DNA of 64,000 bases from an uncultured Candidatus Saccharibacteria bacterium (GTDB lineage Bacteria > Patescibacteriota > Minisyncoccia > UBA6257 > 1-14-0-10-44-23). Position numbers and translations under genes: made by a program. Numbering within the stretch: the first letter of the stretch is position 1; every line of letters starts with the position of its first letter. The DNA is taken from the NCBI GenBank assembly GCA_964641225.1, contig CAZXKC010000002.1, forward strand, positions 52,893 through 116,892, given 5' to 3'. Under the pieces are notes generated by a model. It saw only the letters and a program-made list of their open reading frames with translations, ran no database searches and had not been told where the DNA came from. Below, piece by piece: positions 5,837-48,376 of this stretch.

Positions 5837-6044
5837 AAGGAGTAGGTTTACCTACTTCGAGGATGTCCCGACACAGAGATGATGCAAATTTGCCTGATCC
5901 CTTTGGGTTGCAGCCCGGCTGCCGCCTGATCTCGTTGCTCGCAAAAGCCCATGCTAAAGCATATTGTCTTTTGCGCACGCCGAGCCGGTCAGGCAGCCGG
6001 ATCAGCAACGCGGCGGAAAGATGCTCAGAGCATGGGGCTTAGCC
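5792..6044 (+). ncRNA. GC-rich structured-RNA-like element, copy A, of a two-copy family of unknown identity
   Basis: Shares the core ccgcgatctagacaaa … caaggagtag-hairpin-ctacttcgagga … gggttgc-hairpin … gagcaacgcgg with copy B. Helix sequences differ but remain complementary: A gacaaatttgcatc/gatgcaaatttgcc versus B gacaaaaacccgttag/ctaacgggtttttgtc, and A gtagg-ttta-cctac versus B gtagc-ttcg-gctac. Strand was inferred from the UUCG loop and a conserved G·U pair. Confidence 0.45.
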
Positions 6045-6062
6045 ATATTAAGGTATTGTATA

Positions 6063-6542
6063 ATGAAGCATATGGATGAACAAGAAATTATTTGGTCTTC
6101 GCCGGAATTCCATGTTGTAGAACGGAGCTCAAACTGGTATCTGGCTAGTTTAGTAGTTGCTGCCGCAATTGCTATATTTTGTTTGTTTCAGAAGAATTTT
6201 CTCTTTTTGCTCTTTGTGATCATCGCCGAGACAACGCTGCTTTTTATGACGAAACAAAAGCCGAAACTTTTTGGATATGAAATTACCAGTCAGGGGATTA
6301 CGGTTGATGATGTGCTGGTCTATAAATTCTCGGAAATGAACGGGTTTGCGATCGTTGATGACGGGGTCAGTATGTATGTTGAGCTGGTGATTCGGCCGAT
6401 AAAAAAGCTTGGTCAGTACGGCAAGATTTTATTGCCGCGGGTGATGACCGGTGAGGTGTTTGCAGTGCTTTCGCGATATACCTCGGAATTCAAATATGAG
6501 GAGACAATGACCGAGTCTATGATTAAGAGAATCGGGTTATAG
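6063..6542 (+). CDS. Membrane protein with bacterial PH-like (DUF304/YdbS-like) architecture
   Basis: Two N-terminal TM helices (WYLASLVVAAAIAIFCLF / LFLLFVIIAETTLLF) are followed by a beta-rich domain. ATG at 6063 (MKHMDEQ…) follows an AT-rich stretch. Confidence 0.55.
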   Translation: MKHMDEQEIIWSSPEFHVVERSSNWYLASLVVAAAIAIFCLFQKNFLFLLFVIIAETTLLFMTKQKPKLFGYEITSQGITVDDVLVYKFSEMNGFAIVDDGVSMYVELVIRPIKKLGQYGKILLPRVMTGEVFAVLSRYTSEFKYEETMTESMIKRIGL

Positions 6543-8440: not shown

Positions 8441-8471
8441 GGCCGGGCTTAATCTCCGATTAAGCCCGGCC
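8441..8471. terminator. GC hairpin followed by TTT
   Basis: ggccgggcttaatctccgattaagcccggcc then tttgaatg. Confidence 0.45.
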
Positions 8472-8487
8472 TTTGAATGATGTGTCG

Positions 8488-9123
8488 TCACGAGATAAAG
8501 ACCTCGCGTACGCTTTCTTGCTCATTGTCGTCGAGCAGGCCTCGAATGCTTTCGTAGACGTCGTCCCAGGCTGAACGAAACTCTTCGGGCGTAATTCCGG
8601 CGCGCTTCGAGTCGTACACGCCTATGACATCGCCGTCCTCGGAAATCGATTCGACGAAGGTTGCGCGCTCGACAAGAGCTGCAACTCTGTGATGAGCTGC
8701 GCGAACCCGATCAAGCATCGCTGTGAGTTCTCGATCTGTTCGGTCGCGTCGAAGTCGAGACATGGCGGCGATGAATTTCGGAGGAATATCGCTCGGAACC
8801 TTTCCTTCGATGATCCCAGCCAGGCTTCCATAATAGCGCGCTTCAGCGGCAATCTTTTTCTCTCTGTAATCAACAGAAGCTACCTGCTTGATCTGTACCT
8901 CCGGAGTTGATACTGAGGCGGGCTGCTCCTGAATTTCGGCTTTGACGACCTCTTTCGGGCTTTCTAGATTGCGTGGCCGTGAGGCCGAGCTCGACTTTGC
9001 ATCTGTGCGCACAACCCCGGTCTGCTTGGTGTCCGAGGTCGAATCTACTGGATAGCGGTAGGCGAGTCCGCATACCAAGCCAAACAGGAAGATGAGGCAA
9101 AAACGAACGGATCGACTGAACAT
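8488..9123 (-). CDS. Hypothetical secreted protein on a GC-rich island
   Basis: Signal-peptide-like N-terminus MFSRSVRFCLIFLFGLVCGLA. The ORF is about 57% GC against a 45-50% background. I recognise no motif. Confidence 0.5.
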   Translation of the reverse strand: MFSRSVRFCLIFLFGLVCGLAYRYPVDSTSDTKQTGVVRTDAKSSSASRPRNLESPKEVVKAEIQEQPASVSTPEVQIKQVASVDYREKKIAAEARYYGSLAGIIEGKVPSDIPPKFIAAMSRLRRDRTDRELTAMLDRVRAAHHRVAALVERATFVESISEDGDVIGVYDSKRAGITPEEFRSAWDDVYESIRGLLDDNEQESVREVFIS

Positions 9124-9222
9124 GGCCCCCCTTTTCGTATATATGTCCTGTGTGCAGTAAAAATGCCGAGACCCAGCACAATTAATGCATGTACTCGTAA
9201 GGATCGCAAGTAGTAATGAATA

Positions 9223-10950
9223 TTACTGCTTCGTCTCAATGGCTTGCCCGAGTTCAGGGGAACAGGCGCGGATAAGTAAACCGATGCCGCTAGCGCCATT
9301 ATTAATGCTTTGTACGGCGTAATACGTTTTTGCGGCTGAGCCGATGAGCGGGTCGATCGGTAGCGCGGGTAAATAGGTTGGTACAAAGGTTGGCGCAAGG
9401 TTCAGACAGGCATTTGCGGTTGAGGCGGTGCTAGTTGTATTTACTGTTCCGCTGCCGCTATTTGAGAAGGCGACGTTTTGGAGTGTTGGCCCAAACGACG
9501 AGGTGTCGGTGTCAAAATATGTTTTGTATTGGAAATAGCGATTTACCGGAACATTTGTAAGTGTGAACGACGGGGTAGTTAGGCTGGCGCTGGCAAGGTT
9601 GTCGTAATAGGTTGCCGCAGTGCCGTCTGGTCCGATAAATGTCTCGCCGCTACAGGCGGAGTCGTTGCAGGAGCGTACCTGGTGGCGCAACTTGAGTGCT
9701 CCACGTTTGTAAAAATCTAAGATCTCCGGAGCCGAGAGCGTGCGGTTAAATAATGCAACTTCATCAATAAGGCCGTTGTACCAGGCGCGGTTGCTGCTAA
9801 TCGAGTCGGAGTTGCGACCAATGTCGAGGGCAGCGGTATTGCTGGCCCAGTTTAGCTGGCCATTGACGCGTGCTGTTGCGATATCTTGAACGCCGTTTAC
9901 GTATATAGTTACCGTTGTTGTGTTCCATGTGAGTGCGACGTGATACCACTGACCGCTGATTAAATTAGTCGTGCCCAGAAGTATCTGTTGCGAATTAGTT
10001 GAGCCGTTGTTCCAGCCAAGGTGCACCTTCAGATTGTGTGGCCCGCCGCTGTTTGTTCGAAAAATTTCAATACCATATCCGCCCGGAGTATTTAGGTTGG
10101 CGCCATAGTCTGGCTTGCGAATAACGCCCATACCAGTGTTTGCTGCAAGATTGAGAGTCGGCTGAATCCAGAGCATTACGCTACCACCCGTATTTGGTAA
10201 ATTAAGAGTTGCATTGTTGGCAATTGAAACGTAGTTATTTGATGTGCCGGGCCATGAGAGCGCTTTGTTAAGTTTGCCGGTTGCGTTATAGCCCACAGCG
10301 CCGTTTATCGTGCCGTTATTGGTATTGCCCGAGGTGTCTACGAGCGCGCCGCTTGTTTCGTTGAGGTGCAGCAGCATTCGATTGCCGGTCATCGAGGCAT
10401 TACCTGCAGGGTAGCTGGTTTCTGTGGCGGCTGCGTTTGGCAGTTCTTTATTGTGGGGTGCGCCAGGAGTCCAGCTGATCGTATTCCAGGTTTGGGCTGA
10501 GGCGGCATCTTTAATGCTGCTTGTATAGGTTCCAGTTTTTGCGGTCAGTCCGGCTGCAGTTAAATCAATTGCAGCTATCGGAGTATTCCACTGCGTAGAG
10601 GCATAGGTACCTGAGGCAAAGGTTATGAGGCTATTATCGAGAAATGAATTAATAACTGAGGCGAGCGTATCTGGCCCGCAGATTACGTTGCACGTCGAGG
10701 TTGCCGTGCCCAGCATCTGAAGCGTGGTCGTGACTCCGGCAGGGAAGGCGCCATTTTGTTCTATCGCGTATTGATTGAGAGCGCCCAGAATTTTTTGCAG
10801 ATCTCCGGAGCGCTGCGTGTTGTGTGCGGCACTAAAATTCCGTTTCGGATTAACGGCAATAATCGTAATCGTTGCCAGCATGGCAATAATTCCGATAGTT
10901 ACCAGTACCTCAAGAAGCGTGAAGCCATTTTTAGTTGTGATACTGCGCAT
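9223..10950 (-). CDS. Large type IV pilin/pseudopilin with a LamG/concanavalin-like domain
   Basis: Class III signal with prepilin motif KNGFTLLEVLVTIGIIAMLATITIIAV. The remainder is N/T/G-rich with LamG-like strands (…WYHVALTWN…VTIYVNG…). I chose the Met at 10950 as start rather than the ORF-track start at 11040. Confidence 0.7.
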   Translation of the reverse strand: MRSITTKNGFTLLEVLVTIGIIAMLATITIIAVNPKRNFSAAHNTQRSGDLQKILGALNQYAIEQNGAFPAGVTTTLQMLGTATSTCNVICGPDTLASVINSFLDNSLITFASGTYASTQWNTPIAAIDLTAAGLTAKTGTYTSSIKDAASAQTWNTISWTPGAPHNKELPNAAATETSYPAGNASMTGNRMLLHLNETSGALVDTSGNTNNGTINGAVGYNATGKLNKALSWPGTSNNYVSIANNATLNLPNTGGSVMLWIQPTLNLAANTGMGVIRKPDYGANLNTPGGYGIEIFRTNSGGPHNLKVHLGWNNGSTNSQQILLGTTNLISGQWYHVALTWNTTTVTIYVNGVQDIATARVNGQLNWASNTAALDIGRNSDSISSNRAWYNGLIDEVALFNRTLSAPEILDFYKRGALKLRHQVRSCNDSACSGETFIGPDGTAATYYDNLASASLTTPSFTLTNVPVNRYFQYKTYFDTDTSSFGPTLQNVAFSNSGSGTVNTTSTASTANACLNLAPTFVPTYLPALPIDPLIGSAAKTYYAVQSINNGASGIGLLIRACSPELGQAIETKQ

Positions 10951-13127: not shown

Positions 13128-13164
13128 CCGGGCGGCACCAGCTGGTGCCGCCCGGATTAAAATC
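13128..13164. terminator. Rho-independent terminator, bidirectional
   Basis: ccgggcggcaccagctggtgccgcccgg is flanked by A/T runs on both sides. Confidence 0.6.
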
Positions 13165-18008: not shown

Positions 18009-18581
18009 ATGCCAGAGAAGACGCTCATGCAAAAAATTTTTACGATGCGGCACATGGCGTATTTTGTGCTCGTCGCGTTTATTATCGTCGCGTCATATCT
18101 CTTAGTTGTCTCCGGTGTGCTCGACAAATGGGCGGCGCTGGGCGGCTGGTGGTTGATCCTCATGACCTTTGTGGGAGGACTGTGCTTTACCTCATTTTCA
18201 ACCACGCCGTTATCAGTAGCAATTTTTGTGGTGCTCGCGCGTGATGGCAACGTGCCGCTCTATCAAATCGCACTCTTAGGAGGCTTTGGGGCAATGCTGG
18301 GCGACGCCGGCTTGATAAGCACTGTGAAGATGAGTATTCTCGATGATTTGTTCGAATACTTTGTCCGTAAAACGCATGGAGCATTTGCTCAGTTCGCCAT
18401 AAAGCCCATTGTTCGTGTACTGGCGGTGGTACTAGGTGCGCTCGTGATTGCCTCGCCGCTACCTGACGAGGTTGGTTTGTCGATGATGGGTATGACGCAG
18501 TTGCCAATGCGTTACATTATGCTTGTCTCATTTGTGATCAATTCCGCGGCCATTGCCGGAATTATTTATTTTGTGCGATAA
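18009..18581 (+). CDS. Polytopic membrane protein of unknown function
   Basis: 190 aa with four or five TM helices, immediately downstream of gpmI. Confidence 0.5.
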   Translation: MPEKTLMQKIFTMRHMAYFVLVAFIIVASYLLVVSGVLDKWAALGGWWLILMTFVGGLCFTSFSTTPLSVAIFVVLARDGNVPLYQIALLGGFGAMLGDAGLISTVKMSILDDLFEYFVRKTHGAFAQFAIKPIVRVLAVVLGALVIASPLPDEVGLSMMGMTQLPMRYIMLVSFVINSAAIAGIIYFVR

Positions 18582-20653: not shown

Positions 20654-21574
20654 ATGGCCAAGATTGATGAGCTTCTTCAGGATTATTTGGATTATTTGAC
20701 TGTCGAGAAGGGGCGCTCGCCAAAGACGAGGCGTAATTACGAGCATTATTTGCGCGTATTTTTTAAGGATGCCGATATCAAGAAAGAAACAGATATTACC
20801 GAGCGCGTAGTTAAATCATTTCGTGTGCGACTTTCAGAGCAGCAGAGCGGTCGTGGTGGCGTGATGAAAAAGGTAACGCAGAATTATTACGTGATCGCGC
20901 TTCGCAGTTTTTTGAAATATCTTGCCAAGCATGATCATAACGTGATTGCCGCCGACAAGATTGAACTACCGAAAATTGCACAGCGCCAGATTGATATTCC
21001 TGAATATAAAGAGTTTGATCGACTGATGAGCGCCCCAGAGGGCGAAAGCCTGCGCGCACTGCGCGATCGCGCCATCTTAGAGACACTATTTTCAACAGGC
21101 CTGCGTGTTTCTGAGTTATGTAACCTGAGTCGCTACCTTGATCTGAGTCGCGGAGAGATAACCGTACGCGGTAAGGGTGAAAAACTGCGCGTGGTGTTTT
21201 TTTCAGATAGCTGTAAGGCAACGATAAAAAAGTATTTAGATGCGCGCGGCGATGCTATGGAGTGGATGTTTGTCAGTCTCACACGGGTTCCGAAGAAATC
21301 GCAGAAGCCACCGAAGGTGATCGGCAAAATAACTCCGCGTTCTGTGCAAAACATGGTGAATTTTTATTCCCGCAAAGCCGGGCTTTCTCAGAAGGTGACG
21401 CCACACAAGCTTCGTCACTTATTTGCCACTGACTTACTGATTAACGGCGCCGACCTGCGTTCCGTTCAAGAACTGCTTGGTCACAGCAATATTTCTACCA
21501 CGCAAATTTATACGCACTTAACTAATAAACAATTAGGGGACGTGCATAAGAAATTCCATGGAAAGCGGACGTAG
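20654..21574 (+). CDS. xerC: XerC/XerD-family tyrosine recombinase
   Basis: N-terminal SAM-like domain (LQDYLDYLTVEKGRSPKTRRNYEHYLRVFF). C-terminal catalytic motifs HKLRHLFATDLL…LLGHSNISTTQIYTHL. Confidence 0.85.
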   Translation: MAKIDELLQDYLDYLTVEKGRSPKTRRNYEHYLRVFFKDADIKKETDITERVVKSFRVRLSEQQSGRGGVMKKVTQNYYVIALRSFLKYLAKHDHNVIAADKIELPKIAQRQIDIPEYKEFDRLMSAPEGESLRALRDRAILETLFSTGLRVSELCNLSRYLDLSRGEITVRGKGEKLRVVFFSDSCKATIKKYLDARGDAMEWMFVSLTRVPKKSQKPPKVIGKITPRSVQNMVNFYSRKAGLSQKVTPHKLRHLFATDLLINGADLRSVQELLGHSNISTTQIYTHLTNKQLGDVHKKFHGKRT

Positions 21575-21610: not shown

Positions 21611-21692
21611 GCTCTCGTGGTGAAATTGGCAGACACGCCACCCTTAGGAGGTGGTGCCGCAAGGCATGGAGGTTCAAGTCCTCCCGAGAGCA
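21611..21692 (+). tRNA. tRNA-Leu (TAG)
   Basis: Acceptor GCTCTCG/CGAGAGC, anticodon stem CCACC/GGTGG with loop CTTAGGA, long variable arm TGCCGCAAGGCA, T-arm GGAGG-TTCAAGT-CCTCC, discriminator A. Confidence 0.85.
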
Positions 21693-21703
21693 CCCTGAAA
21701 ATC

Positions 21704-21743: not shown

Positions 21744-22091
21744 CTAACCTTGTCCGAGCAACTGCGCAACTACGAACGATACTCCTTGTGCCAAGAAGGC
21801 GACGGCGATGGCAACTACTGCGTAGATGATGCGCTGGTGAGCTGCTTTAACTTTTTCTTCGTCACCACCAGAGGTCAGGTAAGCGAAGGCGGCCCAGATG
21901 ATCATCAGTACTGCGACAACGAGTAAAATAGTGAACAACCAGCGGATGACGGTGTCAAAAATACCAAGAACTCCTTCAAAGCTACGAATGCCTGGAGGCG
22001 GAGTCGTTGTCGGGATATCGATAGCCATAGCAGCTAGAGGCATAAAGGCTACGAATGCAATTGCGCTGATCGCGAGAATCTTTTTCTTCAT
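21744..22091 (-). CDS. TrbC/VirB2-like (T4SS-pilin-like) small secreted protein, a singleton copy
   Basis: Signal peptide followed by two TM segments around a short SGG..E loop (…IRWLFTILLVVAVLMIIWAAFAYLTSGGDEEKVKAAHQRIIYAVVAIAVAFL…). The same motif recurs in the 24583-27867 array. Confidence 0.6.
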   Translation of the reverse strand: MKKKILAISAIAFVAFMPLAAMAIDIPTTTPPPGIRSFEGVLGIFDTVIRWLFTILLVVAVLMIIWAAFAYLTSGGDEEKVKAAHQRIIYAVVAIAVAFLAQGVSFVVAQLLGQG

Positions 22092-22464: not shown

Positions 22465-22713
22465 ATAATTCGTCAGTCGTGTACCTTGAAAACCTAGGTA
22501 TAGAGCCGTTTTTAGCGGTTTTATGCAATACCTTGCTCTAATTCGTCACGAAATGGGAATCGTATAGCTGATAATGCATAGTCAGCTATACAACTCCCGT
22601 TTCGTGTTAAGTTTGGTTCCTTGTGGAGCCAGCACGGATGGGGCAAGGGCTCTAGTGGCCCGACGCGGGCAAAAGAATGGCCCGCGTTAAGCGGCCATTG
22701 GAGGAGAAAGAAC

Positions 22714-23772
22714 ATGAGTGCAGGACACGGTAGTGGCGGTGGCAAGGGGATGGCGATCTTCGGACTGGTCATCCTGACCACCGTAATCGCCGTGCTCTTC
22801 ATGGTCTTGCCGGAGGAATACCAGCTGCTGATCGGCGCCATCGCGCTTGTCGCAGGGCTCGGACTCACGGCAGTCATCTTCTGTGCGAAGAGCGTTGTCT
22901 TCAACAAGGCAGGGCATGCTCTGATCCAGGAGGAGTTTGGTGATCCCGTAGGAGACGTGAAGAGAAGCCCGGGACCCGCATGGGTTCCGGCATATCGCCG
23001 ACCGATCGTGGTGCACGAGGAGATCAAGACCCTCGATACTACGATCAGGATCGTCACCAGCGGCAGCGCTCAGCCGATTCCCGGACTCTCGATGCTCGCT
23101 AGTCTGCCCGAAGGGCTCGCGATCGAGATTGATGGCTTCATCCGCTATCGGGATTCGGCCACGGTGCTCGACGCCATGGGCAATCCTCAGGTTCTCAGAG
23201 TCAGCAGGCAGAACAGGGAGACTGCGATTCGGCACGCCAGCGAATCGGTGGGCACTATGATCGGCTCCGGATATACGATGGGGGACATCCTCCTGCATCT
23301 TCCGGAGGTCGACAAGATCCACAAGTGCCGACTCGAGCTCTCTCGCATGCCCAATGACGACTCGAGGTTCCTGGATCACTACGGCGTTCGTCGTCCTGTG
23401 CCTCACAAGCTGCCGGACTTCTTCCGTCGTAACCACGCCCGAGTTGACGAGTGGATCGAGCGGTGGGCGGCCACTGAGTCTTCCAGGACCGAAAAGGATG
23501 TCGCGGTCGAGATCATCGAGACCGGAATCCGCAGGGTCAGGCTGCCTCCCCAGATCGACGCTCTCAATCAGCGTAGGGTCTACGGCATCGTCTTCGGCGA
23601 GCTCGTCAAGTCTTACGTTGACGACTACGGAATGACGCCTGCTGAGGCCAAGATCAGCGCTGCTCAAGTGCTGGGGTTCGATGCCCAGACGCGCGAGGTT
23701 CGTTCAACCGGAACTGGCAGGGGTCGTAACATCAACGTGATCGATGGCGGTCACGGCGGTTCGCACCACTAG
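22714..23772 (+). CDS. Hypothetical membrane protein on a GC-rich island; two N-terminal TM helices then a ~280-aa soluble domain, possibly SPFH/band-7-like
   Basis: RBS ggaggagaaagaacATG. Sequence runs MSAGHGSGGGKGMAIFGLVILTTVIAVLFMV…LLIGAIALVAGLGLTAVIF…. GC content is about 60%. The SPFH assignment is tentative. Confidence 0.5.
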   Translation: MSAGHGSGGGKGMAIFGLVILTTVIAVLFMVLPEEYQLLIGAIALVAGLGLTAVIFCAKSVVFNKAGHALIQEEFGDPVGDVKRSPGPAWVPAYRRPIVVHEEIKTLDTTIRIVTSGSAQPIPGLSMLASLPEGLAIEIDGFIRYRDSATVLDAMGNPQVLRVSRQNRETAIRHASESVGTMIGSGYTMGDILLHLPEVDKIHKCRLELSRMPNDDSRFLDHYGVRRPVPHKLPDFFRRNHARVDEWIERWAATESSRTEKDVAVEIIETGIRRVRLPPQIDALNQRRVYGIVFGELVKSYVDDYGMTPAEAKISAAQVLGFDAQTREVRSTGTGRGRNINVIDGGHGGSHH

Positions 23773-23807
23773 CGTAGTTCACTTCACAGAGAAAGGAATT
23801 CGGAAAG

Positions 23808-24407
23808 ATGACTGAAGCACACGCGCCGCATGCTGAAGAAGAGCACGGCCACGACGCTGACGAACCCGTCTTCGAGACGGCTCCTACCTTCTGGGACGAG
23901 CAGAAGAGCTGGCTCGTGCCGGTCCTCGTGATTCTCATCACGCTGGCCTTCGTTGTTCCGATCGTCTTGCTCCTGAAGGCGCATGCGAAGGCGAAGCAGG
24001 AGGCACTCAAGCAGGTGCCCGCGGCCGTCCAGCCGCAGGCGACTCAGCAGTACGGCGTGCCGGTGGCTGCGCCACAGGTCGTCGAGATGCCCCAGGACGA
24101 GGTCTACCCGCGCGATATCGCCGGCGGCAAGACCTGGGAGAAGATCTACGGCGGCACCCGGGCGAAGGTCCGGCGGCCGGCCAACGGGTATGTCCAGTGG
24201 CAGGACGTGCTCATCAGTACAGACGGGAAGAGTTGGCAGAACTTCCCGGACGGTCGTAACAACTACGACCACACGCTCGCCGAGCAGTCCGGAGTCTTCG
24301 ATATCCGGGCCGTCGATGAAACGATTCCGTTCAATCGCGGAATCAGGGTGGTGATCGCCGACCATCCGCTGCCCGATCCTCCCGGTGCGGGAACGATCGT
24401 CAAGTAG
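23808..24407 (+). CDS. Hypothetical single-pass membrane protein on a GC-rich island
   Basis: RBS gaaaggaa. An acidic, His-rich N-terminus precedes a TM helix (WLVPVLVILITLAFVVPIVLLL) and a Q/P-rich extracellular part. It is co-oriented with the upstream gene at a 35-bp gap. Confidence 0.5.
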   Translation: MTEAHAPHAEEEHGHDADEPVFETAPTFWDEQKSWLVPVLVILITLAFVVPIVLLLKAHAKAKQEALKQVPAAVQPQATQQYGVPVAAPQVVEMPQDEVYPRDIAGGKTWEKIYGGTRAKVRRPANGYVQWQDVLISTDGKSWQNFPDGRNNYDHTLAEQSGVFDIRAVDETIPFNRGIRVVIADHPLPDPPGAGTIVK

Positions 24408-24513: not shown

Positions 24514-24535
24514 CTATTGGAGAGGGAAATAAAAC

Positions 24536-24562
24536 CGGGCGGCCTGAGTAGGCCGCCCGGAA
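24536..24562. terminator. Bidirectional GC hairpin (ccgggcggc…gccgcccgg family)
   Basis: ccgggcggcctgagtaggccgcccgg, with an A/T-rich flank on the minus side, downstream of the pilin-like operon. Confidence 0.5.
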
Positions 24563-24582: not shown

Positions 24583-25080
24583 TTAAAACTTGATATTTGG
24601 GTTGAGCTGAATGCTGCCGTACTTTGTGTTGACGTTGATGCTGGCGTTTACATTGCCATTCTGGTTTCCGTTAAGACCATTTTGGCCAACTGCGCTGCTG
24701 CCGTCGCTGACGAGCTGGTATACAACAAATACAATGCCTTTTGAAAGAAGAGCGACGGCAATTGCTACTGCGGCGTAAATGATCATCTTGTGGGCTGAAG
24801 CAACGGCCTCTTCTGCGCCTCCTGAGAACATGTATTTGTAGGCCGCAAAGATGATCCACATCACGGCGAGTACGAGCAGGAGGATAAACATCCAGTTGGC
24901 GATCGTAACGATCAGGCCCTGAATGCCGCTTAAGCCATCACCGCTTTGACCTAAGATTGTGTTTTGCGCGCAGGGGATCGGGCCGCTACAGTCTTGCGTA
25001 ATGTTTTGCTGCGCAAAGGCAACGACGGGCAACAAGAATGTTGCAAGAGAGGCCGCTACAGTTGTAATAAATGTTTTCAT
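24583..25080 (-). CDS. T4SS-pilin-like (TrbC/VirB2-like) protein, array member 5
   Basis: Signal peptide, then …IANWMFILLLVLAVMWIIFAAYKYMFSGGAEEAVASAHKMIIYAAVAIAVALL…, then an N/G-rich tail. Confidence 0.6.
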   Translation of the reverse strand: MKTFITTVAASLATFLLPVVAFAQQNITQDCSGPIPCAQNTILGQSGDGLSGIQGLIVTIANWMFILLLVLAVMWIIFAAYKYMFSGGAEEAVASAHKMIIYAAVAIAVALLSKGIVFVVYQLVSDGSSAVGQNGLNGNQNGNVNASINVNTKYGSIQLNPNIKF

Positions 25081-25092
25081 GCAGATGATAAA

Positions 25093-25821
25093 TTAATTTA
25101 TATTACGGCCATCGAGTGGCCGAATCTCGCCTCCGCTGACACACATAACTGGTCTGCGGCCGTTGGAGCACTGCTGAACCTCGGCGGTGTGTCCTGGAAT
25201 ACTGTAAGGTACAAGTACCGACTGCTTGCCGTCGCTTAAGGTTATATTACTCAAGCTGCCAAAAGTTTGTCCATCCATAATCACAGCAGGGTATTTGGTT
25301 ACGTAACTACCCGAGCTATCTTTGTCGTTGCTGCAGTAGTCGACGAAGACGTCGGTCAGTGTCGGGTGAGGTACTTTAAAGAAGCCGACACCTGGATTTG
25401 CGCAGATTCCCGGAGTAGGGCCTAGCGCAGAGGTTGCCGGCGTTGAGGTTGCCGAGGTCGAGGTGGTGCCACCGCTTCCGCCAAGCACAAAGCGCTGTAC
25501 CGTAAAGACGATACCTTTAGCGAGTGTGCCGACGGCAATAGCGACGGCGGCGTACATCAGCATCTTGTGCGCAGTGCTGACACCTTCTTCGCTGCCACCA
25601 CTAAACAAGTATTTGTAGGCTGCGTAGACGATAAAGGCAACGGCCAGAACAATTAAAAGAGTGAAAAACCAGTTGATGACGGTGTTGATGAGCGCAAGTA
25701 CAGAATCTTCTCCTTGCGGCAGACTGTCTGGTAGTTGTTGGACGCCGCTGACTTGAGCCATTGCTAAGGCAGGAGAGAGAGTCAGGAGCGTAAGTGTCAG
25801 AGCAGTAAAAAGTTTTCGCAT
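25093..25821 (-). CDS. T4SS-pilin-like protein with a Cys-containing C-terminal extension, array member 4
   Basis: …VINWFFTLLIVLAVAFIVYAAYKYLFSGGSEEGVSTAHKMLMYAAVAIAVGTL… plus a ~120-aa tail. Confidence 0.6.
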   Translation of the reverse strand: MRKLFTALTLTLLTLSPALAMAQVSGVQQLPDSLPQGEDSVLALINTVINWFFTLLIVLAVAFIVYAAYKYLFSGGSEEGVSTAHKMLMYAAVAIAVGTLAKGIVFTVQRFVLGGSGGTTSTSATSTPATSALGPTPGICANPGVGFFKVPHPTLTDVFVDYCSNDKDSSGSYVTKYPAVIMDGQTFGSLSNITLSDGKQSVLVPYSIPGHTAEVQQCSNGRRPVMCVSGGEIRPLDGRNIN

Positions 25822-25825
25822 ATGA

Positions 25826-26230
25826 TTACACCTTTGTTACAAAGTTTTGTACGAGCGAAACTAATCCGCGCGAAAGGGTTGCAACAGCGACTGCGATAGC
25901 GCCGTACATAATCATTTTGTGCGCTGTGCCGACATTTTCGCCGCCACCGGCTGTTAGGTAAATAAAGGCGGCGTAGATAAACATGATGATCGCTACCGAG
26001 ATAAAGATGGTGAACATCCAGTTGATGATTTTGTTGATCAAGCCAATTACTTTTTCTTCAGTATCAAGTACGCCTTCGGTGTTGCCGGCACCGTTTGGTG
26101 GTACCTGCTGCACATTGGTCGGGCTACCGTTTGGTGGTACCTGCGTTGTTTGCGCTGTGGCAATAAATGGTGAAGCGATCAGAATACCTGCAGAAAGACC
26201 GGCTGCTAAAAGAACAAGAGTTTTTTTCAT
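25826..26230 (-). CDS. T4SS-pilin-like protein, array member 3
   Basis: …IINWMFTIFISVAIIMFIYAAFIYLTAGGGENVGTAHKMIMYGAIAVAVATL…. Confidence 0.6.
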   Translation of the reverse strand: MKKTLVLLAAGLSAGILIASPFIATAQTTQVPPNGSPTNVQQVPPNGAGNTEGVLDTEEKVIGLINKIINWMFTIFISVAIIMFIYAAFIYLTAGGGENVGTAHKMIMYGAIAVAVATLSRGLVSLVQNFVTKV

Positions 26231-32755: not shown

Positions 32756-33008
32756 AGTAGACAGTAGTTAGTAGTATAGTAGTCAGCAGATGCAAAAACA
32801 ATGAATCTATTTTAGCAAAAAAAGACGAAAGGCGCAACTTTATTTTTTGACCGGCAGTGAAAATGTGAGCATGATTTTTACGTAGAAAAATCGTTTTTTT
32901 GCTCAGCTTTTCTTATTTATCGACGATACCCGATTTTGACAAAATATATCACTTATGATATATTATTTTCCACTCTGCGCCATGGTGGCGTTGAGTAGGG
33001 AGGTTTTC

Positions 33009-33332
33009 GTGAAAGATCGAAGGGTATGGATTGAGTTGGTCATTCTGGTCGCATGCATCGTCGTTCTGGTGGCCGTGCCGGAGCTGATCAGGTTCCGCCT
33101 ACCGCTGGTATCGGCGGCGCTGGTTGTGGCGCTGATTGTCGGCGTCTACCGGTGTCTCTTCAAGCAGCCGTCCTGTGCGATGCGCGAGCAGACGGCTCGG
33201 TTCGCACGGGGAGAGCTGGGGCATGAGCATTTCGAACACGCCTCATTCCATCTGGGGAGGTGTCAACGTTGCAGTTCTGATTTCGGCGAGATCTCCAAGG
33301 AGAAGATGCACTTCGAAGGGAGTGCATCATGA
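33009..33332 (+). CDS. Hypothetical small membrane protein with a C-terminal CxxC…H-rich segment, on a GC-rich island
   Basis: RBS gggagg, then GTG. Hydrophobic helices VILVACIVVLVAV / ALVVALIVGVY, then …HEHFEHASFHLGRCQRCSS…. Confidence 0.4.
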   Translation: MKDRRVWIELVILVACIVVLVAVPELIRFRLPLVSAALVVALIVGVYRCLFKQPSCAMREQTARFARGELGHEHFEHASFHLGRCQRCSSDFGEISKEKMHFEGSAS

Positions 33333-33742
33333 AGGCGAGCTTGAATCTGTGCACAGTACTGCTTCTGGTGGGCGTGGCAGGTGGGTATGCCATGGGCAGC
33401 CACGACTTCACCCCGCCGGACGCTCAGGCAACGATCACCTCGTTGACTGCCGATCTCAAGGTGCAGAAGGAGCAGGTCGCGTCGCTCACCGCACTGCTGG
33501 CGACCTACCGGAGTCGCGTTGGCTACCTGTGCATCTCGCTCAAGTCGGTTCCTCCGGGGATGAACAAGCTCGATGTCTCTCCCAGGGGTATCTTCGCGGT
33601 CTGCACGCAGGCTCTCGAAGAGACGCGTGAGCCGCGGGCCAAAACCATCGACGTTCTCGAGGTTGACCCCGAAGGCAAGCTCATCGGCATCTATGTGCCG
33701 GGCATGCAGGCGGTGATGATCGGTATACCACCCGGGAAGTAA
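33329..33742 (+). CDS. Hypothetical secreted protein on a GC-rich island
   Basis: Signal peptide MKASLNLCTVLLLVGVAGG. The ATGA overlap with the upstream gene suggests translational coupling. GC content is about 60%. Confidence 0.5.
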   Translation: MKASLNLCTVLLLVGVAGGYAMGSHDFTPPDAQATITSLTADLKVQKEQVASLTALLATYRSRVGYLCISLKSVPPGMNKLDVSPRGIFAVCTQALEETREPRAKTIDVLEVDPEGKLIGIYVPGMQAVMIGIPPGK

Positions 33743-39834: not shown

Positions 39835-41247
39835 ATGAATTATCTTAAATTTATTAGTTTTTCTATCCTTGCGGGATTAGTTGTACCCGCAGTTGCCGTC
39901 GCGCAAATGTACTCAGGCTCAATCAGCGGAGGTATGTTTACGTCTACCGTAGTTACTCCATCATTTGATAGCAATCACGCCGACGATATTCTCACGCAGA
40001 TCAATAATTTCACAATTCAGGCGATTAATTACAATCAATCGGGCGGCTCTGCCGTAATAACTGCAACTGGGGAGGTGCAGGTTCAGTGTTTTGCCTATCC
40101 GTGTTACCCGCAGACGAATACCTATTATATCCGCACATTTTCTACGACGAGTTTTCTCTTAAAAAATCGCGCATGGGCAACGCTTAGTGCGCTTGCCGTC
40201 GGCGATCGCATCAATGCTTATGGATACCTCGATCGCGATGATCAGGTGATGGACGCACTGATTGTGCGTGACTTAGATAAACCTGCTGTCGCCCAGTATG
40301 TACAGATCGATAACGTTCAGGTGCAGAACGTACCCGGCCCGTATGCGCCAACCAGTTTTACGGTATCGGAAAACACTCAGTATTGTCCGTATCAATTTTT
40401 TGGCGGCGTCTGTCCATTTACGACGGGCAACAGTCGCACATATCAAATCCAGGTTAGTTTTTCAACAACGTTGCTCTACGCAAATCGCACCGCAATGCCG
40501 CTGCCAGAGATACGAGCAGGCGATAGAGTAAATGTATACGGAGTATTGAATCCCACCACAAACACCGTTGATGCAACGGTGATCCGAAATCTTTCGCGCG
40601 ACGGAAATATTTTTACGCCGCCTCCTATGAGTACCAATCAGGCGCCGGTGATAACCTCGGTCAGTGGGCCAAATTTTTTACCGCTCGGTCAGAACGGAAC
40701 ATGGACAATTAGCGCCTATGATCCAGATACTACGCAGCTTACGTATTATGTACGATGGGGCGATGAGCTGTATGGATATGGCAATAATGCAGCGGCTGTT
40801 CCGCAGCTACTTACTCAGACCGGCACCTTTACTCATGCGTATGCTATGGCTGGAACATATACTGTTACGTTTACCGTCGCTGATCAGTACGGAAAACAAG
40901 CAACCTCGACGCTGACGGTAACCGTTAGTGGTAGCGGGCAAATTTCAGTGCCGCAATTAAATCAACTTTCGCCAATTTACGGCCCCGTCGGAAGCTATGT
41001 TACTGTTTATGGTTCTGGGTTTGCCTCGACGGGCAACATTGTTTATTTCGGATCGGGCGCGATTACCGGCGTAAGCTCGTATGACGGGAAAGCGCTCAGT
41101 TTTTTGGCGCCTCAATACCTGAGCCCGTACTGCGCTCCGGGCATGTACTGTGCGCAATATGTTGTAAACGTTACGCCGGGAACATATGAGGTCTCAATTG
41201 ATAACGGATTTAGTAGAAGTAATGTGGTGACGTTTGGGGTGCAGTAG
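39835..41247 (+). CDS. Secreted protein with a duplicated N-terminal domain, a PKD-like domain and an IPT/TIG-like C-terminus
   Basis: Signal peptide. Internal duplication (…VGDRINAYGYL… versus …AGDRVNVYGVL…). PKD-like TYYVRWGDELYGYG…GTYTVTFTVADQYG. C-terminal GPVGSYVTVYGSGF. Confidence 0.55.
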   Translation: MNYLKFISFSILAGLVVPAVAVAQMYSGSISGGMFTSTVVTPSFDSNHADDILTQINNFTIQAINYNQSGGSAVITATGEVQVQCFAYPCYPQTNTYYIRTFSTTSFLLKNRAWATLSALAVGDRINAYGYLDRDDQVMDALIVRDLDKPAVAQYVQIDNVQVQNVPGPYAPTSFTVSENTQYCPYQFFGGVCPFTTGNSRTYQIQVSFSTTLLYANRTAMPLPEIRAGDRVNVYGVLNPTTNTVDATVIRNLSRDGNIFTPPPMSTNQAPVITSVSGPNFLPLGQNGTWTISAYDPDTTQLTYYVRWGDELYGYGNNAAAVPQLLTQTGTFTHAYAMAGTYTVTFTVADQYGKQATSTLTVTVSGSGQISVPQLNQLSPIYGPVGSYVTVYGSGFASTGNIVYFGSGAITGVSSYDGKALSFLAPQYLSPYCAPGMYCAQYVVNVTPGTYEVSIDNGFSRSNVVTFGVQ

Positions 41248-41262
41248 AAAGAAGATTTTTAT

Positions 41263-41300
41263 CCGGGCGGCGCACAAGCGCCGCCCGGTTGCTTTTTGAC
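41263..41300 (+). terminator. Rho-independent terminator (ccgggcggc…gccgcccgg family)
   Basis: ccgggcggcgcacaagcgccgcccgg followed by ttgcttttt. Confidence 0.6.
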
Positions 41301-41384
41301 TTTGCCTCATGAAAATCGTTAGAATACTAGCATCCCGGTACGAATGCATGGCGCGTTCGATTAGGGGTAGGGGGGGTAGCGAAG

Positions 41385-41525
41385 ATGACTAAGGGGCAGC
41401 TGCGCGATATCGGTTCGATCGCCGGTATTGTTCTTTTCTCCGGAGCGATCCTGTTCGCCGTCGCGATGGCCATTAGCTCGTGCGGTTCGAGCAGTGTGCA
41501 AACGAAGATCGCCGCCAGTAAGTGA
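41385..41525 (+). CDS. 46-aa single-TM peptide on a GC-rich island
   Basis: RBS ggggggtagcgaagATG. MTKGQLRDIGSIAGIVLFSGAILFAVAMAISSCGSSSVQTKIAASK*. Not in the ORF track (<60 aa). Confidence 0.35.
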   Translation: MTKGQLRDIGSIAGIVLFSGAILFAVAMAISSCGSSSVQTKIAASK

Positions 41526-41560
41526 TCGTTGTGTAAGTTCGACAATCACCGCATCAGTCT

Positions 41561-41598
41561 GGGGCGGCGCCCACGCGCGCCGCCCCGACAGAGATTTT
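41561..41598 (+). terminator. GC hairpin terminator, first copy of a duplicated terminator motif
   Basis: ggggcggcgcccacgcgcgccgcccc followed by gacagagattttt. Confidence 0.5.
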
Positions 41599-41698
41599 TA
41601 TATTGTTGCCTCGCCAGATTGGCGGTTTTAATAAAAAATTGTTAGGGTAAGGATGTCTGCGGGAGGTTGTTCCCGTGGCAGGCAACAAGGAGAGAATC

Positions 41699-42181
41699 AT
41701 GAAGCGACCTTTGTCGAAGGGGATGCGTACGGCGATCATCGGATTGGCGTCGATGTGTATGCTCTTCGGACTCGCACTCGGACTTGCGATCGGGCTCGGT
41801 CATCCGGCGCAGGCGCAGGAGGCGCCGCAGATGGTCCGTGTCGGCACGAAGGTGCCGGACGAGTTCCTTCTCAATCGCCACACTCTCGCGGGGGTCATCG
41901 AAGCGGCTACAAAGAGCAACGAATTCGTGATGTGCTCTATGAGCCCGGGATCGGTGTGGTTCCATGACGGAGAGCTGTATGTCTGGGATGGGCCTGGGAC
42001 GACCGTAGAGCTGGGAGAGACTTTGAGCGTTCCTGTCGAGGTGGGTCCGAAGGGAGAGCTTCAACTCTACATCCGGCGTTCCCGTCCGACGGTCTGGTAT
42101 CGCGACCAGAGTTACAATCCCTTACAGAAGAAGGCCATGAAGGTGACGCAGATCATCGTCGTGGAAGACGGCAGGAAGTAG
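41699..42181 (+). CDS. Hypothetical secreted protein on a GC-rich island
   Basis: RBS aaggagagaatcATG. Signal peptide MKRPLSKGMRTAIIGLASMCMLFGLALGLAIGLGHPAQA. The mature part is beta-rich and matches no motif I recognise. Confidence 0.55.
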   Translation: MKRPLSKGMRTAIIGLASMCMLFGLALGLAIGLGHPAQAQEAPQMVRVGTKVPDEFLLNRHTLAGVIEAATKSNEFVMCSMSPGSVWFHDGELYVWDGPGTTVELGETLSVPVEVGPKGELQLYIRRSRPTVWYRDQSYNPLQKKAMKVTQIIVVEDGRK

Positions 42182-42210
42182 CTCGCCGCAAGGCGAGTCG
42201 CGGTCTGATC

Positions 42211-42248
42211 GGGGCGGTGTGCAACCGCCGCCCCGACAGAGAGAATAA
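42211..42248 (+). terminator. GC hairpin terminator, second copy, sharing the ccgccccgacagaga tail
   Basis: ggggcggtgtgcaaccgccgcccc followed by gacagagagaataattt. Confidence 0.5.
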
Positions 42249-42314
42249 TTTGCGCATTTTTTAATAATCTGGTATTCTCTTTTTCATTACTAACTGCTAC
42301 CAATCACTTGTACT

Positions 42315-42470
42315 ATGGGTTCACTACCTCCCAAACATCCTACCAGCGGTAAAGTTCGCCGCCGCCGCAGTCACTTGGCCTTAAAGCCGCTTAATATTGT
42401 TGCTGATAAGGACACAAAGATGCCGACCTTCCCGCACAAAATTATCCCAAAGAAGTGGACCGCAAAATAA
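42315..42470 (+). CDS. rpmF: 50S ribosomal protein L32 (missed by the 60-aa ORF track)
   Basis: MGSLPPKHPTSGKVRRRRSHLALKPLNIVADKDTKMPTFPHKIIPKKWTAK* fits the bL32 pattern (PK+KTS+S+R.RR.H). A terminator aaaaacggagctcatggctccgtttt follows. Confidence 0.65.
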   Translation: MGSLPPKHPTSGKVRRRRSHLALKPLNIVADKDTKMPTFPHKIIPKKWTAK

Positions 42471-46795: not shown

Positions 46796-46835
46796 TCCGG
46801 GCGGCGCGCAAGCGCCGCCCGGATTCGTTTGCGTA
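46796..46835 (+). terminator. Rho-independent terminator (ccgggcggc…gccgcccgg family)
   Basis: tccgggcggcgcgcaagcgccgcccgga followed by ttcgtttgcgtatttt. Confidence 0.55.
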
Positions 46836-47710: not shown

Positions 47711-48376
47711 ATGATGAAATTCGATATTCTAACGATTTTCCCGAAAATGCTCGACTCGTACATCTCCGAGTCGATTTTAAAGCGCGCCCAGGAAAAGAAA
47801 CTGATTAAGATTGTGGGACACGATATTCGAGCCTTTTCAAAAGATAGGCACAAAAAGGTGGACGACCGGCCATATGGCGGCGGCGCAGGGATGGTAATGA
47901 GCTTTCAGCCAATTGCCGATGCTGTTGCTAAACTAAAAACTAGAAACAAGAAACTAAAAACAAGAATAATTTTATTTTCAACCCGCGGAAACGTATTCAC
48001 AAATAAAGATGCAAAGAGGCTCGCAAAATACGATCAGCTCATTTTTATCTGCGGCCGTTACGAGGGAGTTGATCAGCGTGTCGCAGAGTATGTTGCTGAC
48101 GAGGAAATTTCTTTAGGTGATTACGTTATTACGGGCGGAGAGCTTGCTGCCGGAATCGTCATTGACGCAGTTTCACGTCAGATTCCTGGCGTGCTTGGTA
48201 AAACCGAATCACTCGAGGAGCAACAGGGAAGTTATCCAACATACACGAAACCGGAGATAATCAAAGACAAAAAGAAAACGTTGCGCGTGCCAAAGGTTTT
48301 AACAGAAGGAAATCATAAGTTGATTAACGAGTGGCGCGCTCAAAACGGCCTGTCGCGTGAGAGATCGAATTCATAA
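47711..48376 (+). CDS. trmD: tRNA (guanine37-N1)-methyltransferase
   Basis: MMKFDILTIFPKMLDSYISESILKRAQEKKL…YGGGAGMVM. The ORF-track start at 47693 is a GTG; ATGATG at 47711 is more likely. Confidence 0.9.
   Translation: MMKFDILTIFPKMLDSYISESILKRAQEKKLIKIVGHDIRAFSKDRHKKVDDRPYGGGAGMVMSFQPIADAVAKLKTRNKKLKTRIILFSTRGNVFTNKDAKRLAKYDQLIFICGRYEGVDQRVAEYVADEEISLGDYVITGGELAAGIVIDAVSRQIPGVLGKTESLEEQQGSYPTYTKPEIIKDKKKTLRVPKVLTEGNHKLINEWRAQNGLSRERSNS

Follow-up and report, generated by a model that had tools for sequence, protein, structure and literature searches.

Within a 64,000-nucleotide stretch of an uncultured Candidatus Saccharibacteria genome (contig CAZXKC010000002.1 of assembly GCA_964641225.1; hereafter the window), we found that a GC-rich block between dnaE and rpmF holds two small open reading frames (ORFs), each followed on its coding strand by a strong hairpin of one and the same family. 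The outer stem of these hairpins is retained at the orthologous place in related genomes, where the gene content of the site varies. We regard it as probable, if far from certain, that the hairpins serve as terminator/insulator elements in a variable, lineage-restricted islet whose genes are ORFans for exported proteins, and we infer that they terminate transcription and insulate the neighboring promoters. All the ORFs, ribosome-binding sites, hairpins, the TTTTT run and the 3' tail listed by a first-pass annotation of the sequence lie at the positions given there, and the features of the block are as follows (aa, amino acids; nt, nucleotides; GC3, GC content at third codon positions).

41296-41325, + strand: sigma-70-like promoter ahead of the small ORF, TTGACT-18-TAGAAT (10/12 consensus match; called on the consensus match only)
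41385-41525, + strand: 46-aa ORF with a strong G-rich ribosome-binding site (GC3 0.70, in-frame periodicity; promoter, ribosome-binding site and terminator agree)
41554-41592, + strand: hairpin 1, upper stem GGGGCGGCGC-ccacgc-GCGCCGCCCC at 41561-41586, then GACAGAGA and TTTTT
41619-41648, + strand: promoter of the 160-aa gene, TTGGCG-18-TAGGGT, containing AAATTGTTAGGGT, which is exact in the orthologous units of two related genomes (L006 and L010, below)
41649-41698, + strand: leader of about 50 nt with a CGGGA..TCCCG stem-loop, also present in L006 and L010, and an AAGGAG ribosome-binding site
41699-42181, + strand: 160-aa ORFan ORF (GC3 0.74, signal-peptide-like N-terminus, two syntenic homologues)
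42181-42198, + strand: small gene-proximal hairpin with a GCAA tetraloop, after the 160-aa ORF
42204-42240, + strand: hairpin 2, TCTG-(A)-TCGGGGCGGTG-tgcaac-CGCCGCCCCGA-CAGA, upper stem at 42209-42236, then GA to 42242

Anatomy and conservation of the hairpin family

Hairpins 1 and 2 start 29 nt and 23 nt past their respective stop codons. The 3' arm of both contains a 17-nt exact repeat, CGCCGCCCCGACAGAGA (41578-41594 and 42226-42242), which only one other exact direct repeat of the window exceeds in length. GGGGCGG and TCTG are shared on the 5' side, and with the 5' arms included about 29 of about 37 positions match. The first-pass annotation had described an identical 3' tail behind the two stems; the identity holds as part of this repeat, but the tail is not free, as GA.CAGA pairs with the upstream TCTG(A)TC and forms a lower stem tier. 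The tail thus belongs to the stem and should be annotated as such, each structure being a two-tier hairpin of about 37 nt with a bulged A. In hairpin 1 the lower tier pairs with GACAGA, and the TTTTT run (41595-41599) lies 2 nt beyond it. The predicted folding energy was -28.9 kcal/mol for hairpin 1 (z -4.45) and -43.7 kcal/mol for hairpin 2 in tandem with the small GCAA hairpin (z -5.1), both beyond all 200 shuffles. Two copies in the window bear the tail, and six hairpins contain a GGGCGG..CCGCCC core (four of a CCGGGCGGC..GCCGCCCGG family and the two GGGGCGG copies), with 0.03 expected for the common core. A search of known RNA families returned only sub-threshold chance matches.

We then looked for the pattern GGGGCGG-N(6-16)-CCGCCCCGACAGAGA in 185,579 species genomes and obtained 3 matches, one of which is syntenic with the window and belongs to a Saccharibacteria metagenome-assembled genome (MAG; GCA_964549935.1, locus L002/L006). 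The other two stand alone in unrelated GC-rich MAGs, and we put them down to chance. Hits to the hairpin pattern labelled L003, L004 and L005 were all dismissed in this way; they are single sites, of which at least two lie inside coding-like sequence of unrelated GC-rich contigs. L006 presents, in order, a divergent dnaE, a 165-aa homologue of the 160-aa protein, a short hairpin with a TTCG loop, the hairpin TCTGATCGGGGCGGCGC-cgcgc-GCGCCGCCCCGACAGAGA, the rpmF promoter, rpmF and nusB. Its hairpin arms and tail are identical to those of the window and the promoter core AAATTGTTAGGGT is exact, despite marked protein divergence: DnaE is 88% and NusB 80% identical, the secreted protein only 28%, and the DNA encoding the latter 55%, which is noise level. 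The hairpin upstream of rpmF in L006 and hairpin 1 of the window are 94% identical over 34 nt; hairpin 2 of the window is less close to the L006 hairpin. Where the window has the GCAA hairpin, the TTCG-loop stem of L006 is a different one. An additional hairpin, GCGGGGCGGCGAGC..GCTCGCCGCCCCGC, follows a separate 44-aa ORF in L006 (GC3 0.87). The earlier suggestion that the resemblance of the two window hairpins is more than coincidence is supported, and hairpin and tail recur at the orthologous place. Two independent Logan contigs, L007 (7160-7187) and L008 (2300-2333), end within the loop of the L002 hairpin, probably because the palindrome breaks the k-mer graph. These ends were not counted as repeat evidence and call for caution with assemblies of these loci. 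Of the window genome, the collections yielded only a 1.1-kb Logan contig with its NusB; the sequencing run SRR14271332 contains this NusB as well as the L002 protein.

A second MAG, GCA_034680565.1 (L010), also harbors a homologue of the 160-aa gene between dnaE and rpmF, here as one of six ORFan genes in an array. The first gene encodes 256 aa as annotated, or about 200 from the preferred ATG, and the others encode 161, 170, 66, 225 and 141 aa. Its first three units (A, B and C; 8470-10006) have a promoter/leader in common, TTTTTAATTGACT...AAATTGTTAGGGT...GGACAGGAGGA, that is 85-90% identical and carries a small stem-loop, CCCG..CGGG or CGGGA..TCCCG, before GGACAGGAGGA. The three encoded proteins (about 200, 161 and 170 aa) show no similarity to each other by hhalign or by Smith-Waterman alignment with shuffles, and paralogy among the islet proteins of L010 was discarded, nothing being detectable by either method. 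The terminal hairpin of the 161-aa gene is GGGGCG-a-CTAGCGG-tat-CCGCTAG-g-CGCCCC, with GATTTTTTT behind it, the hairpin at 9882-9912 is followed by TTTTTTT, and the array closes with CGGGGCGTCG-cttaca-CGACGCCCCG, without the CAGAGA tail, just before the rpmF promoter. Similarly, a third locus, L011, carries GGGGGCGG..CCGCCCCC before its rpmF promoter, in this case without a recognisable secreted-protein gene. The L011 spacer at 5990-6290 further contains a promoter-like site, a piece resembling the 3' end of a tRNA or transfer-messenger RNA (tmRNA) (GGGTTCAAATCCCGCCACCGGCTCCACCA) and about 200 nt of GC-rich sequence with GGATTCG, ahead of the GGGGGCGG hairpin. ARAGORN reported nothing and the Rfam tmRNA model gave 8.7 bits only; the spacer may represent what is left of an attachment site, a unit that has decayed or an RNA not yet recognised.

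The alignment of seven hairpins from four related genomes revealed that the outer six pairs, GGGGCG/CGCCCC, are invariant in 7/7. Of the 11 pairs in the consensus, 4 have changed on both sides and still pair, three of these lying in the inner stem, and one stem position in L010 has changed on both sides from G-C to U-A. The outer half-sites are separated by 12-19 nt, and this variable spacing together with the invariant outer stem points to selection on the folded strand, not to a DNA operator with fixed spacing. The four genomes all keep a copy in position before rpmF, all hairpins except that of L011 sit shortly 3' of a stop codon on the same strand, and in every case a hairpin directly precedes the next promoter. 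Hairpins with the same outer stem follow other GC-rich ORFan genes in the relatives. In about 750 kb of related sequence, no housekeeping gene has the tail motif at its terminator. The proposal of the first-pass annotation of an element-associated terminator family agrees with these data insofar as the hairpins are tied to a variable, compositionally atypical islet. It had also regarded the shared ends as a possible boundary of a duplicated cassette. Hairpin excepted, the two window units show no DNA or protein similarity above shuffles; whole-cassette duplication was ruled out on these grounds, as none is still detectable.

A variable site with unusual gene content

The spacer between dnaE and rpmF differs in content well beyond these genomes. 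We fetched 80 metagenome loci through NusB (58-76% identity); among all fetched loci, 61 contained rpmF and 43 the start of dnaE. The divergent dnaE/rpmF arrangement is common, with a gap of 102-4086 nt in relatives, and the gap contents are unrelated to each other, encompassing rnhB, various ORFans and, on one strand or the other, proteins with a signal peptide. The 160-aa family was not found in any NusB-fetched metagenome locus. At the site itself, units number 0 of this kind in locus L009, 1 in L006 and 2 in the window, and L010 has 6 ORFan genes there. L009 has a dnaE-rpmF gap of 461 nt with the rpmF promoter intact and no hairpin. Relatives without the block, which the first-pass annotation had proposed to look for, therefore exist, and together with the variable gap content the empty L009 site marks the block as accessory and lineage-restricted. 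Between the rpmF promoter and the rpmF start, L009 carries about 120 nt of inserted sequence (400-535), containing several hairpins, that is not found in the window, L006 or L010; a stretch of L010 before a khpA-like gene (about 18350-18410) is partly similar to it.

The 160-aa gene is real. Its product begins with a signal-peptide-like segment ending in AQA|QE, followed by a mature alpha/beta domain of about 120 aa, and the AlphaFold2 (AF2) model has a core predicted local distance difference test score (pLDDT) of 75-88 with no fold match. The protein had no match in Pfam, NCBIfam or PHROGs, nor in a word-indexed search of 5.8 billion proteins, and a metagenome search aimed at the family found no match. 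An exhaustive HMMER search of 1.84 billion representatives recovered 2 true homologues (39% and 31% identity) and 1 spurious hit to a repeat protein. Both homologues lie at the dnaE/rpmF site, in the MAGs of L006 and L010, one of which is labelled Saccharibacteria. The consensus fold of the leader stem-loop is weak (-4.5 kcal/mol), with two-sided changes at 4 pairs.

The 46-aa product has a single hydrophobic segment ending in a lipobox-like AISS|C, with 14 residues past the Cys. It had only insignificant matches, to signal regions of lipoproteins, and none of the fetched loci encodes a homologue. Candidate identities are a tiny lipopeptide, a small membrane peptide and what remains of a larger gene for an exported protein. 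Judging by their N-terminal sequences, both this peptide and the 160-aa protein are predicted to be exported. The -10 region of the site at 41296-41325 reappears at 47725-47740, so that the site looks like an ordinary promoter of this genome. A promoter common to both window units was considered and dropped: the small-ORF promoter matches the islet motif at chance level (3 mismatches; 16 such sites against 18 expected).

The first-pass annotation had put the block at about 62% GC. This was somewhat too high, as we measured 58.4% overall and no more than 60.7% in the richest 300-nt segment, the window as a whole having 48.7%. The excess resides in third codon positions, where the GC3 of the two ORFs compares with about 0.50 for core genes. 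In synonymous codon usage the block is best fitted by a model built from the L010 islet genes and worst by one built from the window core genes; the upstream PKD-domain gene and rnc show the opposite pattern. The islet genes of all three genomes (window, L006 and L010) are GC3-rich relative to their hosts. Two other groups of ORFans in the window, at 22621-24407 and 32955-33742, behave in codon usage like the dnaE-rpmF block. They comprise membrane or signal-peptide proteins (22621-23772, 23808-24407, 32955-33332 and 33329-33742; GC3 0.73-0.81 for the first two) without a match in Pfam, NCBIfam or PHROG. The dnaE-rpmF block thus seems to be one of several islets that use one compositional pool.

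Proposed function and competing explanations

In the model we propose, the spacer of the divergent dnaE and rpmF contains an islet, here of two independent one-gene units, each with its own sigma-70-like promoter, ribosome-binding site, exported-protein ORF and strong two-tier GC hairpin. The hairpin family is defined by the outer stem GGGGCG/CGCCCC, the lower tier TCTG/CAGA being an addition of this sub-lineage. Most likely, transcription ends at the hairpins, and they also protect the mRNA at its 3' end. In this way they would keep read-through from the next promoter, hairpin 1 shielding that of the 160-aa gene and hairpin 2 that of rpmF, and the two copies would be alike through common descent and selection on both structure and sequence. 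With regard to origin, the block is native to the lineage and not contamination, and we found no sign of a mobile-element boundary. Proteins that have diverged this far should have synonymous sites matching the bias of their host, so the high GC3, which matches that of islet genes in a GC-richer relative, makes long residence at the site less likely. A distant donor is in turn made less likely by the lack of homologues outside these MAGs. The units may instead be exchanged among higher-GC relatives by recombination in the conserved flanks. This is the weakest step of the model.

Several observations weigh against the model. Hairpin 2 has no proper U-tract beside its stem, only a scattered T-rich stretch (GAGAATAATTTGCGCATTTTTT), and its orthologues in L006, L010 and L011 have a similarly poor U-tract; none of these is a canonical intrinsic terminator. 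The L011 hairpin has no clear ORF ahead of it. Ordinary termination requires no particular stem sequence, and the rpsP-khpA spacers of the window, L006 and L010, although orthologous, contain hairpins unrelated to each other. Set against this, the invariance of GGGGCG/CGCCCC across genomes and sites hints at more than termination; the uniform CCGGGCGGC family of this genome adds to the question. Finally, exchange among relatives, the simplest reconciliation of GC3 and homology, is suggested by the composition of only three genomes. The excess conservation of the stem keeps alive two classes of alternatives, REP-like (repetitive extragenic palindromic) and integron-like.

Under the former, the hairpins would be REP-like or miniature mobile palindromes that spread by themselves and tend to land at gene ends. 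We consider this unlikely. Tail-bearing copies are limited to two in the 64 kb of the window and one in the 20 kb of L006, neither a flanking target duplication nor a GTAG-type REP signature is present, and no family of the Y1/RAYT type (REP-associated tyrosine transposase) occurs among about 35 window ORFs scanned. The terminators of this genome are indeed uniform, the CCGGGCGGC family is not found in any of the 90 related loci, and orthologous spacers of the relatives contain other hairpins, all of which would suit a self-spreading element. The copy before rpmF, however, keeps its position in four genomes, which speaks for vertical retention over mobility, and the inner stems and loops differ by compensatory changes, unlike those of fresh copies. 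A miniature inverted-repeat transposable element or insertion sequence was likewise rejected, no direct repeat flanking either hairpin or the block as a target duplication would. Recent import of the whole block, donor terminators included, from a high-GC organism such as an actinobacterial host is in keeping with the GC content and GC3, with the poor codon fit to the window core genes and with the many relatives that lack the block. Yet the HMMER search yielded nothing beyond the two syntenic homologues and the spurious repeat protein, word-based searches added no further match, and plasmids and viral contigs gave none, for which reason a phage or plasmid origin was also set aside. The hairpin pattern itself led only to the related Saccharibacteria MAG and two chance-like single hits, and no donor genome carrying the hairpin as a repeat appeared among the 185,579 species genomes. 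Promoter, leader and hairpin are moreover kept at the same locus though core proteins differ by 12-28%, which indicates that the unit is old in the lineage. We thus find import improbable. The recent foreign insertion put forward by the first-pass annotation fares no better, for lack of homologues away from this locus in these MAGs and of any integrase, transposase or target duplication at the site.

In the integron-like alternative, the hairpins would be recombination sites at which a hairpin-recognising recombinase slots unrelated ORFs into the dnaE-rpmF array in the manner of integrons and attC. Its attraction lies in the unit number, which differs among relatives at one site, in the common promoter/leader of L010 units A, B and C with their dissimilar proteins, in the right edge of the block, which a comparison with the empty L009 places no more than about 10 nt from where hairpin 2 ends, and in the bulged A of the stem. 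The arms TCTGATCGGGGCGG / CCGCCCCGACAGA, when tested as attC, lack the AAC/GTT cores of RYYYAAC ... GTTRRRY boxes, and the units carry their own conserved promoters whereas integron cassettes are usually promoterless. The 20-kb loci of L006 and L010 contain no integrase; the window has a single tyrosine recombinase, at a distance of 20 kb, which scores 229 bits as XerC, as opposed to 107 bits as integron integrase against a cut-off of 265. The left breakpoint relative to L006 lies near the promoter -35, outside the hairpin, and the same pattern is explained if units were duplicated in tandem and their exported proteins then diverged fast. An integron as such was rejected on the missing attC features and the Xer-like recombinase, and we judge the broader recombination-site reading quite improbable. 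Its most specific form appears very improbable to us, namely an integron-like array without an integron integrase, perhaps extending to other islets, in which unrelated exported ORFs from a common GC3-rich pool are slotted, at the dnaE-rpmF hotspot, into a conserved frame of promoter/leader and GGGGCG hairpin with the invariant stem as recombination or recognition site. If true, it would mean fast turnover of surface or secreted proteins in an epibiont. A diversity-generating retroelement target was also considered and rejected: comparing 41300-42300 with the window (blastn, word size 7) gave no imperfect repeat of the coding region that could be a template. No reverse transcriptase was seen among the scanned window ORFs.

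Genomic surroundings and comparison with known systems

The block is flanked by the following features.

39835-41247: gene for a 470-aa PKD-domain protein (Pfam PKD_4/PKD)
41263-41288, + strand: terminator hairpin of the PKD gene, CCGGGCGGCGC-acaa-GCGCCGCCCGG (perfect 11-bp stem, dG -27.2)
42249-42278, + strand: rpmF promoter, TTTGCG-18-TATTCT with TG upstream (alignment of five genomes)
42315-42470, + strand: rpmF, ribosomal protein L32 (Pfam PF01783, L32p), the conserved right-hand neighbor

The hairpin behind the PKD gene marks the left edge of the GC-rich block and is a member of the CCGGGCGGC family. This second terminator family, already noted in the first-pass annotation, is real, with near-identical copies of the form tCCGGGCGGC-N-GCCGCCCGGa at the gene ends 13128-13155, 24535-24560, 41263-41288 and 46796-46823; the palindromes at 41263 and 46796 differ by 1 loop base across 26 nt. 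On the right, the rpmF promoter forms the border of the variable region and is kept in relatives with and without the block. rpmF itself is 90% identical to that of L006 at the nucleotide level and is followed by nusB, rnc and smc. Positions 42238-42247, comprising the tail and the next bases (AGAGAGAATA), are complementary to 42273-42282 in the -10 region of the rpmF promoter (TATTCTCTTT). L006 has a 6-nt version of this complementarity, and chance is a possible explanation.

Elsewhere in the window, the gene for the Xer-like tyrosine recombinase (20654-21574) is located directly upstream of tRNA-Leu (21611-21694). Pilin-like genes of the conjugal-transfer/T4SS_pilin type, at 21744-22091 and 24583-25821 (both on the - strand), bracket the GC-rich ORFans at 22621-24407. 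This region could be an integrated element, or else an islet may have come to lie within the native type IV system. Among exact direct repeats of the window, the 19-nt ACCGTTTGGTGGTACCTGC is the longest; it occurs at 26090-26108 and 26126-26144, 36 nt apart, inside a minus-strand ORF (25826-26230) with a weak pilin-like match.

Saccharibacteria live attached to other bacteria, and exported proteins, most of them ORFans, are the likeliest tools of this contact. The locus described here keeps a small, fast-changing set of exported genes in one fixed position, and its frame consists of conserved promoters and leaders and a single family of hairpins. As such it offers a handle for finding similar islets in genomes of the candidate phyla radiation and a test case for the upkeep of terminators and insulators in tiny genomes. 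We found nothing specific on it in the literature.

Compared with known systems, the hairpins resemble Rho-independent terminators in forming a GC-rich stem-loop tens of nucleotides past the stop codon on the gene strand, in the T-run of hairpin 1 and, for the tandem form, in the two hairpins behind the 160-aa gene, the first with a GCAA tetraloop. They differ in the invariance of the outer stem across sites and genomes, more than termination by itself would call for, and hairpin 2 and its orthologues are without a proper stem-adjacent U-tract. Like REP sequences and bacterial interspersed mosaic elements, which are thought to stabilise mRNA and terminate transcription, they are short imperfect palindromes at gene 3' ends with several near-identical members per genome; unlike them, very few copies, no GTAG signature and no RAYT gene were seen, and one copy is positionally conserved. 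Integron cassettes with attC share with this locus a variable number of unrelated small genes at one site and an imperfect hairpin with a bulged base, but here attC core motifs and an intI/attI/Pc platform are missing and the units have their own promoters. Finally, flexible genomic islets likewise occupy a fixed place between core genes, in this case dnaE and rpmF, and hold differing content of atypical composition with exported ORFans. In contrast to these, the present islet is very small (0.9-4 kb), has no tRNA or integrase at the site in the window, and consists of units that share regulatory sequences and a terminator family.

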